Assembly (NCBI RefSeq): GCF_008000775.2
Contig: NZ_CP042905.2
Location: 1,350,001-1,382,000, forward strand
Direction of reading: 5' to 3'
Length of the DNA: 32,000 nt
Source: Promethearchaeum syntrophicum
GTDB taxonomy: Archaea; Asgardarchaeota; Lokiarchaeia; Sigyniarchaeales; Promethearchaeaceae
Shown: one piece after another, positions 21,433-26,658 of the stretch
How positions within the stretch are numbered: the first letter of the stretch is position 1
Layout: every line of letters begins with the position of its first letter
Position numbers and translations under genes: made by a program
The notes under the pieces: model-generated
What the model was told of the DNA's origin: nothing
What the model saw: the letters and a program-made list of their open reading frames with translations, nothing else
Database searches by the model: none

Positions 21433-22083
<651 letters not shown>

Positions 22084-22826: not shown

Positions 22827-23378
22827 CTAAATCTCATTATTTTCGATTTTAAGCGCATTTTCATAACATCGTTTGGCTATTTCCATAAACATTTCTTCAA
22901 CGTTTAAACCTTCTTTTGCAGAGGTTTCTATATGAAATGCATCCAACCTTTCCGCTAAATCCTCTGCGTCTTCATAGGATACTCGCCTTTGGTCTTCAAG
23001 ATCTTTTTTGTTCCCAATAATTATCAATGGAATCGTGCCTGTTGCTTTCTTCAAAGAACTAATCCAACCTGGAAGTCGCAATAATGATTCGGGTTTTGTA
23101 ATGTCATAAACTCCTATTGCACCTTGGCTCCCTTTGAAATAAATGTTTCGCATACTGCTAAATTGTGCCTGCCCCCCAATATCCCAAAGCAATAACCTAA
23201 GTAGAACACCTTCCATTTCTATATCTTTTATAAGGAAATTTGTTCCTATTGTTTGTTTTAGATCTGTAGAGAAAGTTTTTTTAATGAATCTCAAAATAAG
23301 ACTGGTTTTTCCGACATTTTGGGAGCCGAAAAGGGGAATTTTGAATTTATACTGTTTTTTATTACTTTGATTACTAAT
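22827..23378 (-). CDS. Rab/Ras-like small GTPase; 5' end extended beyond the track ORF to include the P-loop
   Basis: The track ORF (22827..23294) has G2 TIGTNF, G3 WDIGGQ, G4 GNKKDL and G5 ETSAK but lacks G1. My translation upstream in the same frame gives ISNQSNKKQYKFKIPLFGSQNVGKTSLI, where G1 is GSQNVGKT. The frame is open back to the TAG at 23399-23397. There is no ATG/GTG/TTG upstream of the P-loop, so I propose a start at ATT 23378. Confidence 0.85.
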   Translation of the reverse strand: MSNQSNKKQYKFKIPLFGSQNVGKTSLILRFIKKTFSTDLKQTIGTNFLIKDIEMEGVLLRLLLWDIGGQAQFSSMRNIYFKGSQGAIGVYDITKPESLLRLPGWISSLKKATGTIPLIIIGNKKDLEDQRRVSYEDAEDLAERLDAFHIETSAKEGLNVEEMFMEIAKRCYENALKIENNEI

Positions 23379-23384
23379 TGAGAT

Positions 23385-23390
23385 CTCCTC
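23385..23390 (-). promoter_or_regulatory. Shine-Dalgarno-like GAGGAG, 6 nt upstream of the candidate ATT start of the GTPase
   Basis: The minus strand reads GAGGAG ATCTCA ATT. An identical GAGGAG plus 6 nt spacer precedes the ATG of the gelsolin-like gene (26572-26567, then ATG at 26560). Confidence 0.35.
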
Positions 23391-23521
23391 GAGAAGCTAT
23401 TAAAAAATTTAGTCTGAATATACTTTCATTTTTAGTATTATTAATGCTTCTAGTTTGGATAATCACTTTTAATAAAAAATAAATGATTATAAGAGATGCG
23501 GGAGACACATTATTCTTGATA

Positions 23522-23935
23522 ATGAATACTGACGGGAAAAAAAAAAAGGAGTTTTTAGGTCTAATTTTGTTAAATTTAAGTGGAATTTTATGCATAATAT
23601 CCGAGTTTATTCTTTGGACAAATGAGTTTAGTATATTTAACTTATTTCAGCTAGAAATAGCAAATAGTATTATTTATTTAATCCCGTTAGTTGGAGGTTT
23701 TGGAATACTCCTGAGCGCTTTAAATATTGCTATATTCAAACGAAAATCATATAAATTTTGGTATATCTTGTTGGTAATTATTTTAAATTTACTATTTTAC
23801 TTTTTGCTTGAAGTTTTCTCAAATCAAGGGGCATATCTTTGGAGATATATGGGAATCTATACAACAATTTCTGCATTACTATGTCTTCTTTTTGGAATTT
23901 TATTCCAAATTAATGCAAGAGCTGAAAATCCTTAG
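23522..23935 (+). CDS. small four-helix membrane protein, unknown function
   Basis: The protein has hydrophobic helices throughout. The start is uncertain: ATG 23522 is followed by an A11 tract at 23537-23547, while the track start at 23483 adds unlikely residues. Confidence 0.5.
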   Translation: MNTDGKKKKEFLGLILLNLSGILCIISEFILWTNEFSIFNLFQLEIANSIIYLIPLVGGFGILLSALNIAIFKRKSYKFWYILLVIILNLLFYFLLEVFSNQGAYLWRYMGIYTTISALLCLLFGILFQINARAENP

Positions 23936-23966
23936 AATTATTATGAAATATTTGTATGTGTAAAAA

Positions 23967-24896
23967 ATGATGGAAAATAAAGAAAATAAAAAATCCAATT
24001 TAAATTCAAATAATATAAAGAAAGAGGATAAAGATATACCACTAGATATTACTGAAGATCAATTCTATGTTGCTTTAGGTCATGAAATAAGAAGAAAAAT
24101 ATTAAAAATTATTGGTGATAATGGTATTTCAAGCTTTTCCACTTTTAAAAAACAAATCCAATCCAGTACAGGAACTATATATCATCATTTAGAAGTAATG
24201 AAAGAATTAATTATTCAAGATAAGAAAAAAAAATATCATCTAACTAATTTAGGAGAGCATGCTTATCAGATTTTAAGTAATAATATTGAATCTATTGAAA
24301 TTGTGGCCAAACAAGATGAAAAAACTGAGTTTAACAAAGAAAATAGGTTATATGATTATTTTTTACTTAAAAAGTTATTTGATTATTTCTCAAGTAATAC
24401 GAATAAAACCTTTTTAATTTCATTCGGGATTTTACTATTAATTGGTGTGTTAAGCGGAATAAATAACTTGCAAATATTTTTATTCTTTATTCGACAAGCC
24501 CAAGTTGGAGAACCATTATATTATTATTTTATTATGGATGCAATTACGATTTTTATCAGCTATTTTATTCTTATAACCACAACGGAGATTTTGAGTTATT
24601 TTATCTTTAACAACCATAATAACTGGAAAAAATTTCTCAATATCCTTTCAATTCCGTATATACCAATTCTTATTTACCTCGGAATTTATGCAATTTCAAA
24701 TTTGGTCTTCCCTACAATTAATCCTTTGTTCTTTGATATTTTATTGCTCCTTTTCCAGGTTTGGTCAATGATTTTATTAGCAAAAGCTATTTCAATTGTA
24801 AAACTTGTTAAATTTGAAAGAGGGTTATTATTGGCAATTTTAATTGATTATGGAACCTTTATGATTATGTTAATTATGAACAATCCATATCGATAA
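23967..24896 (+). CDS. ArsR-type winged-helix protein fused to a C-terminal polytopic membrane domain
   Basis: ALGHEIRRKILKIIGDNGISSFSTFKKQIQSSTGTIYHHLEVMKELIIQD...YHLTNLG is a typical ArsR/SmtB wHTH. Residues from about 150 to 309 form about five hydrophobic helices. Confidence 0.7.
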   Translation: MMENKENKKSNLNSNNIKKEDKDIPLDITEDQFYVALGHEIRRKILKIIGDNGISSFSTFKKQIQSSTGTIYHHLEVMKELIIQDKKKKYHLTNLGEHAYQILSNNIESIEIVAKQDEKTEFNKENRLYDYFLLKKLFDYFSSNTNKTFLISFGILLLIGVLSGINNLQIFLFFIRQAQVGEPLYYYFIMDAITIFISYFILITTTEILSYFIFNNHNNWKKFLNILSIPYIPILIYLGIYAISNLVFPTINPLFFDILLLLFQVWSMILLAKAISIVKLVKFERGLLLAILIDYGTFMIMLIMNNPYR

Positions 24897-25858: not shown

Positions 25859-26560
25859 TTAAATGTTTGTTATCTTTTTTTTGGAATTCAAGAATAATGT
25901 CGGAATCAATATTAAACTCGCCATTCCAAGGATTATAATTGATCCCTGAAAATTCCATTTCCATATAATATGATATATTAAAAGAATTATAGACATATTT
26001 GTACATATTATATTCAGTACAGATTTTGAGAGTAAATATAATATTTCTAGAGAAATCAATAAAATCAGTGAAATTATATTTAGGATCAGATTAATCTGCA
26101 TGAATCTGGAATAGTCTGAATCAAAAAGAAATAATTCATTTAACTGAGCTGAAATACTAAATTCGTTAAAATTTAATGTGATAGATAAGCGAATCACGGC
26201 GAATAACAATAATAAAAATATGAATAGAGCTAAGATTTTTTGCAGTAAATCTAATTTCGCAATTTTGTTATATTCAGCTAATTCCTCCTTCTCAGATTTG
26301 TTAATGATTGAGGTTAGCATCTCTTTTATATGATCAGGGCTCTCGTTCTTTATTAAATGCACTTTATAAAATGGATATTCTGCTTTTTTTCTTGATAAAG
26401 CTTCTTTTGCCATCATTGAGATTTTAGGTGAAATATATTTACCTTCCCAAACATACATTATCTTTTCATCTTTATCAATCAACAAGCCCATATCTTTTTC
26501 AGTCAAATTCTCTGCTTCAATCCATATTGCATTAACAAATTTAAAGATAATCATTACCAT
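25859..26560 (-). CDS. membrane-anchored protein with an N-terminal gelsolin-repeat-like domain (inferred)
   Basis: AIWIEAENLTEKDMGLLIDKDEKIMYVWEGKYISPKISMMAKEALSRKKAEYPFYKVHLIKNESPDHIKEML follows the gelsolin-repeat pattern (w-x-ie ... D-x-y-l-l-D ... k-I-y-v-W-x-G-k ... e ... A ... v ... E-x-x-P). Four hydrophobic helices follow. ATG 26560 is preceded by GAGGAG. Confidence 0.45.
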   Translation of the reverse strand: MVMIIFKFVNAIWIEAENLTEKDMGLLIDKDEKIMYVWEGKYISPKISMMAKEALSRKKAEYPFYKVHLIKNESPDHIKEMLTSIINKSEKEELAEYNKIAKLDLLQKILALFIFLLLLFAVIRLSITLNFNEFSISAQLNELFLFDSDYSRFMQINLILNIISLILLISLEILYLLSKSVLNIICTNMSIILLIYHIIWKWNFQGSIIILGMASLILIPTLFLNSKKKITNI

Positions 26561-26658
26561 TCTCAACTCCTCAACTACTTCTTTTCAATAACAAAACCAA
26601 AACTTATTAATTATTTATCCAATTTCCATTATATAATTATCGCATTATATGATTCACC

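Follow-up and report, generated by a model that had tools for sequence, protein, structure and literature searches.

A Rab-like small GTPase gene of Promethearchaeum syntrophicum very probably starts at an AUU codon behind a strong Shine-Dalgarno element

RESULTS

Reading frame and domain content of the GTPase gene

We examined a 32,000-nt window of the Promethearchaeum syntrophicum genome, which is a single contig of 4.32 Mb with 31% G+C. A gene on the minus strand of this window very probably encodes an intact, functional Rab-like small GTPase that is translated from AUU at positions 23378-23376, as judged from the sequence comparisons described below. Read from this ATT (23376 to 23378, minus strand), the full-length coding sequence (22827 to 23378, minus strand) has 183 codons plus the stop TAG, and its second codon is Ser (AGT). 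The frame is open between an in-frame TAG at 23399-23397, with two more in-frame stops (TAA) just beyond it, and the stop TAG at 22829-22827. The first ATG, GTG, or TTG in the frame is the TTG at 23294-23292, and mechanical open reading frame (ORF) calling used this codon. The 34 codons upstream of it encode LLEEISISNQSNKKQYKFKIPLFGSQNVGKTSLI and include neither ATG nor GTG nor TTG. An earlier reading of the window, made from the letters alone (the sequence-only reading), had described this open frame and the 34 codons, and its coordinates hold.

The G1 motif, or P-loop (GSQNVGKT; 23304 to 23327, minus strand), lies upstream of the first canonical start, and the ORF called from TTG 23294 lacks it; both observations had been made in the sequence-only reading and were borne out. 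The product of this shorter ORF has 155 amino acids (aa). We rejected this TTG (23292 to 23294, minus strand) as a start. It is an internal Leu codon, a start there removes strand beta-1 together with G1, and it has no Shine-Dalgarno (SD) element (duplex ΔG, -2.6 kcal/mol).

The 183-aa product matched the Pfam Ras profile (PF00071) over profile positions 1 to 160 of 162 (E value, 1e-46; 158.8 bits compared with a curated cut-off of 21.6), and the match spanned residues 13 to 171 counted from ATT. There are no stops inside the profile match, and motifs G1 to G5 are all intact, among them G3 (DIGGQ; 23169 to 23183), G4 (NKKD; 23001 to 23012), and G5 (SAK; 22914 to 22922), all on the minus strand. 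The best solved relatives of the GTPase were Rab21, Rab14, Rab22A, Rab5, Ypt1, and the Thorarchaeota Rab 7EZB (E values, 1e-38 to 1e-33 overall and 1e-38 to 1e-35 for the first five; residues 8 to 175). The N terminus had been called that of a textbook Rab. This holds insofar as the sequence is Rab-like, with Rab21, Rab14, and Rab5 nearest, but it does not extend to the C terminus, where we found no prenylation Cys motif (CC, CXC, or CAAX); the last ten residues (NALKIENNEI) are without Cys. Because the C-terminal cysteine is absent, we describe the protein as Rab-like and not as a demonstrable Rab.

Selection and the boundary of the coding region

The genus-level comparison included six sequences (the window, three metagenome bins, and two metagenome contigs), and ATT was invariant at the start in all six. 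Across these sequences, the stretch of 21 codons that surrounds the P-loop and precedes the TTG had a pS of 0.56 and a pN of 0.000, and the remainder of the gene had a pN/pS of 0.084. Upstream of the GAGGAG that precedes ATT, close relatives differed by non-triplet indels, in their stop codons, and in their frames, which indicates that this region is non-coding. Downstream of ATT, a single indel was found among close relatives, and it comprised one whole codon. The pattern on both sides thus places the beginning of the coding region between GAGGAG and the codon after ATT.

These data bear on the suggestion, made in the sequence-only reading, that the gene has just lost its start and is an incipient pseudogene whose full GTPase is no longer translated. 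Such a loss would account for the absence of ATG, GTG, and TTG upstream of G1 and for a mechanical ORF of only 155 aa with the P-loop missing. However, ATT is common to all six genus-level sequences and occurs in many genera belonging to three families, no G motif is degraded, and almost all genomes of the order with a match to the ortholog have a single one. Further, the segment upstream of the TTG shows no amino acid change at the pS given above, and the rest of the gene has the low pN/pS given there. Strong purifying selection on the gene therefore excludes the pseudogene reading, and we give it next to no credence.

Even less probable is a sequencing or assembly error, by which the true codon would be ATG or a homopolymer error would mask an upstream start. 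An A6 run does lie 14 nt downstream of ATT, and there is an ATG upstream in the same frame (23429-23427). That ATG, however, is followed by three in-frame stops in the window and falls in other frames in close relatives, although in one of them (P0001) an upstream ATG happens to be in frame and open. Moreover, ATT, ATC, or ATA stands at the start position throughout the assemblies, whether these are metagenome bins, metagenome contigs, or closed genomes, and this agreement of independent assemblies excludes an error.

Start codons of the orthologs

We searched 154 genomes of the order and obtained an ortholog match in 135, with a single match in 134 of these. The relatives included members of the same genus (Promethearchaeum sp.) and, within the same family, Candidatus Harpocratesius repetitus and Candidatus Lokiarchaeum ossiferum. 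For 138 orthologs, we anchored the region around the start on the P-loop. The start calls of five orthologs (L007, L017, L174, L176, and L182) were corrected by eye, and nine were flagged as ambiguous; a canonical codon inside or next to the SD element makes the start ambiguous in L010, L011, L012, L016, L038, and L171.

Nearly all orthologs had an SD-like element (GAGGAG, GAGGT, AGGTG, GGTGA, or AGGAA) with an in-frame start-type codon 6 to 9 nt later. A comparison of orthologs had been suggested in the sequence-only reading, and it shows that the homologous post-SD position in the 138 orthologs is occupied by ATT (37), ATC (8 to 9), ATA (1 to 3), ATG (62 to 64), TTG (23), or GTG (2). For the 136 orthologs that were classified, the counts were 37 ATT, 9 ATC, 1 ATA, 64 ATG, 23 TTG, and 2 GTG. 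The second codon was mostly Ser where the start was ATT, ATC, or ATG. In Harpocratesius, an ATG lies 8 nt after GAGG, at the exact place of the ATT in the window. The arrangement of SD and ATT was found again in dozens of independent assemblies, which is more than chance would produce. The proposal of an ATT start behind an SD element is thus strongly supported by the ortholog census, the selection tests, and the strength of the SD element (see below), and on this comparative evidence we consider it highly likely that ATT 23378-23376 is the start of the GTPase gene.

A start at some other near-cognate codon, either the ATC at 23384-23382 or a CTC or CTT further upstream, appears quite improbable. 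The ATC had been put forward as an alternative start; it is conserved within family f1, and some f3 orthologs have ATC at the homologous start position. Nevertheless, ATC 23384 forms the last part of the SD element GAGGAGATC and has no spacer, whereas the SD register of the genome sets the start 7 to 10 nt after GAGG. Outside family f1 its position is occupied by TTC, TTT, ATA, or ATT, with retention of the ATT that lies two codons further on. Given that it lies within the SD element and varies in the other families, we conclude that ATC 23384 is not the start.

Termination-reinitiation was also considered as a source of initiation at ATT. A 73-codon upstream ORF ends in a TAG that overlaps ATT (ATTAG), but this ORF is AT-rich, its product resembles low-complexity sequence, and the candidate was rejected. 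The bases after ATT differ among orthologs, so the ATTAG overlap is not kept.

Evolution of the start codon

A maximum-likelihood tree was built from 136 orthologs and left unrooted. For ATT, ATC, or ATA (ATH) versus canonical starts, 10 changes were counted on this tree, compared with a mean of 39 for shuffled labels, and the count of 10 was the same when the ambiguous orthologs were removed. ATT was found in family f2, in nearly all of f1, and in early-branching genera of f3. Genera g19 and g23 had ATC; ATG or TTG was present in g9, g11, g18, and part of g15; and the four f4 sequences had an ATG or GTG start.

The third base of the start codon changed 13 times on the tree, compared with 36 to 58 times at the third position of nine invariant fourfold codons. 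Three invariant Ile codons switched 35 to 45 times among ATT, ATC, and ATA on the same tree, and the ratio ATT:ATC:ATA was 37:9:1 at the start versus about 64:23:45 at these interior Ile codons. The rate of turnover and the skew among the three codons set the start codon apart from an ordinary isoleucine codon. Judged by these counts, the identity of the start codon is under selection, with ATA avoided and ATT persisting even though ATG is one transversion away. The slow turnover fits stabilizing selection on each state; it is no proof of regulation.

Shine-Dalgarno element, leader, and neighborhood

The 16S rRNA of the genome ends in ...GGAUCACCUCC, and the ideal SD sequence is therefore GGAGGUGAUCC. 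Of the 9 bases in the SD element of the GTPase gene, GAGGAGATC (23382 to 23390, minus strand), 8 agree with GAGGTGATC, which is complementary to the 16S 3' end GGAUCACCUCC. The GAGGAG of this element (23390-23385) lies 6 bases ahead of ATT, and the distance from the GAGG core to ATT is 8 nt; the SD register of the genome places GAGG 7 to 10 nt ahead of ATG. The ATT at 23378-23376 with its GAGGAG and 6-nt spacer is thus located as the sequence-only reading had stated. The same arrangement that it had noted for a neighboring gene (GAGGAG, TTGAGA, and then ATG) was confirmed at 26572-26558 on the minus strand. This neighbor, a membrane protein (25859-26572, minus strand), is listed from TTG 26566, and GAGGAG with its 6 nt puts the likely start at ATG 26560.

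The duplex of the GTPase leader with the 16S tail has a predicted energy of -11.4 kcal/mol, which is stronger than that of 99.3% of 1,460 confident ATG starts in the genome (top 0.7%). The contiguous SD match is only 4 plus 4 bases around one mismatch, and for this reason a score based on contiguous matches misses the GTPase gene; duplex energy worked better for scoring SD elements. Counts of codons at fixed offsets after every genomic GGAGG, GAGGTG, or GAGGAG were uninformative because these motifs mostly fall within genes, as in-frame Glu codons. The SD element of the GTPase gene is conserved across genera. Only about 10% of the first ATG codons in the genome have an SD element ahead of them, and SD sequences are rare in Lokiarchaea according to a review (PMC12993045).

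Further upstream, the alignment of the six genus-level sequences contains a conserved block, AGAAGCATTAATAATA...AAAGTATATT (23417 to 23449, minus strand). The TATA-like AAAGTATATT (23426-23417) closes this block 38 nt ahead of ATT. The block ending in AAAGTATATT may be a promoter; the 5' untranslated region would then be ∼15 to 20 nt long and hold only the SD element.

Divergently oriented upstream of the GTPase gene is a pair of genes (23483-24896, plus strand) for a four-transmembrane (four-TM) protein and a wHTH (DUF7347)-membrane protein. This pair adjoins the GTPase ortholog in genera g1, g5, g7, g4, and g13. On the minus strand at 21433-22083, an ORF opens with ten Asn codons (MNNNNNNNNNNYELEE...).

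Other candidate ATH starts in the genome

The GTPase gene belongs to a small class of genes in the genome with SD-led ATT, ATC, or ATA starts. Among codons located 20 or more codons ahead of the first canonical start, a strong SD preceded 9 of 512 ATH codons compared with 9 of 3,422 other codons, a 6.8-fold enrichment (Fisher P = 1.6e-4). Apart from ribosomal protein eS19 (see below), further candidate SD-led ATH starts lie 20 to 111 codons before the first canonical codon, at genome positions 856700, 115847, 1478128, 2682642, 2854454, and 3586559 on the plus strand and at 3509246, 260848, and 3449779 on the minus strand. These further candidates include TrmO, a DRG-like GTPase, and a zinc-ribbon/TM2 protein, and in the three that were checked, Pfam domains start at or near ATT.

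The gene for eS19 (G000:C1:3097425-3097859, minus strand) has an SD-led ATT, at which the Pfam S19e domain (positions 2 to 136 of 137) starts. An in-frame TGA lies one codon upstream of this ATT, and the first canonical codon follows 71 codons downstream. Among the loci compared (L189 and L193 to L222), the ATT is common to genera g1, g5, and g6, with ATA in one genome; other genera have ATG there.

The genome contains 48 P-loop GTPase frames, of which two had no canonical start upstream of G1. The second of these frames (G000:C1:335170-336156, minus strand; ...NNIKTLILGKAGVGKT) has no canonical start 5 or more codons ahead of G1, and an ATA- or ATT-type start is possible for it. Coding potential based on codon usage separates poorly at 31% G+C (means, +0.08 versus -0.13; standard deviation, 0.19). 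By this score, about 5% of 502 long pre-start stretches look coding, and most look non-coding. As a rough estimate, about one-tenth of strongly SD-led genes start at ATH, which would amount to well under 1% of all genes.

We searched for tRNAs with ARAGORN, which gave an incomplete tRNA set for this genome, and found no credible initiator with a non-CAU anticodon in that set. The only tRNA(CAU) called (G000:C1:133963-134074) is of the initiator type and contains an intron; it has A1-U72, and its anticodon stem contains three G-C pairs. In total, ARAGORN called 24 tRNAs without introns allowed and 45 with introns, and a tRNA-Sec(TCA) was also called.

DISCUSSION

We propose that the GTPase mRNA has a short leader whose exceptionally strong SD element, GAGGAGAUC, would pair with the 3' end of the 16S rRNA. 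This pairing would bring the AUU, which follows the GAGG core by 8 nt, into the P site, where the ordinary initiator Met-tRNA (anticodon CAU) could read it with a third-position mismatch. The protein would then start with Met-Ser-Asn-Gln... and would include strand beta-1 and the P-loop. A weak codon combined with a strong SD element might give a low or tunable output that is set by the stringency of the proofreading factor aIF1. In an archaeal in vitro system, mRNA with AUU is bound by 30S initiation complexes and is discriminated against by aIF1 (PMC4705826), which suggests that an AUU start is feasible and that it should be weak and sensitive to aIF1. Initiation efficiency at the AUU of the GTPase gene may be low.

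As to the meaning of the weak start, we lean slightly toward the view that ATT is a real start without regulatory significance, where a strong SD element suffices and the codon undergoes near-neutral drift among ATT, ATC, ATG, and TTG. The tree has at least 10 switches between ATH and canonical starts, ATG-type orthologs also retain the SD element, and a ribosomal protein gene also has an ATT start, all of which fit drift; the ribosomal protein gene also argues against ATT being simply a mark of very low expression, and the switches to ATG or TTG call for the same caution. What drift explains less well is that the third base of the start codon turns over 3 to 4 times more slowly than synonymous sites and that ATT persists across families, given how near it is to ATG. 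That the weak AUU codon is instead a regulatory device, and not a tolerated state, seems to us possible but rather unlikely; what speaks for it is the slow turnover of the codon. More doubtful still is the broader idea that the SD-led AUU, AUC, and AUA genes of Lokiarchaeales form a conserved control group whose output follows the stringency of aIF1; the Rab-like GTPase, ribosomal protein eS19, the DRG-like GTPase, and others would be its tentative members. If this were true, it would be an archaeal counterpart of the regulation by near-cognate starts in eukaryotes, in the lineage closest to eukaryotes. Among prokaryotes, this lineage has the start-codon machinery (aIF1 and aIF2) most closely related to that of eukaryotes, and cultured strains of Promethearchaeum and Lokiarchaeum exist.

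The start at ATT also has consequences for annotation. NCBI translation table 11 allows ATT, ATC, and ATA as alternative initiation codons. The ortholog of Lokiarchaeum ossiferum (L008, CP104013; protein P0009, 206 aa, "Rab family GTPase") starts at an ATA directly after the upstream stop, and annotators have thus already accepted a non-canonical start for this gene. In comparison with the SD element and ATT, however, the start of P0009 is probably about 22 codons too early; the call is the longest open frame and extends ∼22 codons beyond the SD-led ATT. Other orthologs in the databases (P0018, P0021, P0023 to P0026, and P0029) are truncated to a GTG, TTG, or ATG that lies within the G domain, and many metagenomic entries are 121 to 167 aa long and start inside the G domain. 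Since the arrangement of SD and ATT is kept across the order, standard gene finders cut off the nucleotide-binding loop. Gene finders limited to ATG, GTG, and TTG thus strip the P-loop from a eukaryote-signature GTPase, and those that accept non-canonical starts over-extend it instead. A correct N terminus matters wherever Asgard small GTPases are counted, expressed, or crystallized.

A literature search for AUU, AUC, or AUA starts in Asgard archaea found no description of them. The GTPase gene contributes an example of a natural archaeal AUU start that is deeply conserved and backed by order-wide comparative statistics, in a setting where SD elements are otherwise uncommon.

At the level of the protein, the GTPase resembles the eukaryotic Rabs and the Thorarchaeota Rab 7EZB, which are its best solved sequence matches, and it has G1 to G5 with a G3 of the WDxxGQ type. 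It differs from these Rabs in its C terminus, which ends in ...NALKIENNEI and offers no Cys for prenylation, and in its unusual P-loop GSQNVGKT, which by alignment has Gln at the position of Ras Gly12.

At the level of initiation, AUU starts are themselves known, and the GTPase gene is very probably a further case, in Asgard archaea. The bacterial gene infC, which encodes IF3, has a conserved AUU start, and IF3 is the proofreading factor that discriminates against it; pcnB of E. coli also has an AUU start codon. The AUU of infC is read by the initiator tRNA, as we propose for the GTPase gene. The GTPase gene shares with infC and pcnB a conserved AUU behind an SD element and the lack of a canonical start. 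As in infC, there is no canonical start upstream of indispensable residues, an in-frame stop bounds the frame, and the SD element is complementary to the organism's own 16S 3' end at its usual spacing. A proofreading factor discriminates against AUU in both settings, the archaeal one being aIF1 in the in vitro system (PMC4705826). Unlike infC, the present case occurs in an Asgard archaeon and concerns a Rab-like GTPase, not the proofreading factor itself. The aIF1 gene of this genome has an ordinary ATG start available, so that an autoregulatory loop like that of infC is not indicated here and none is evident for the GTPase. Finally, the AUU of the GTPase gene differs from that of infC in that it alternates with AUC, AUA, AUG, and UUG among orthologs.
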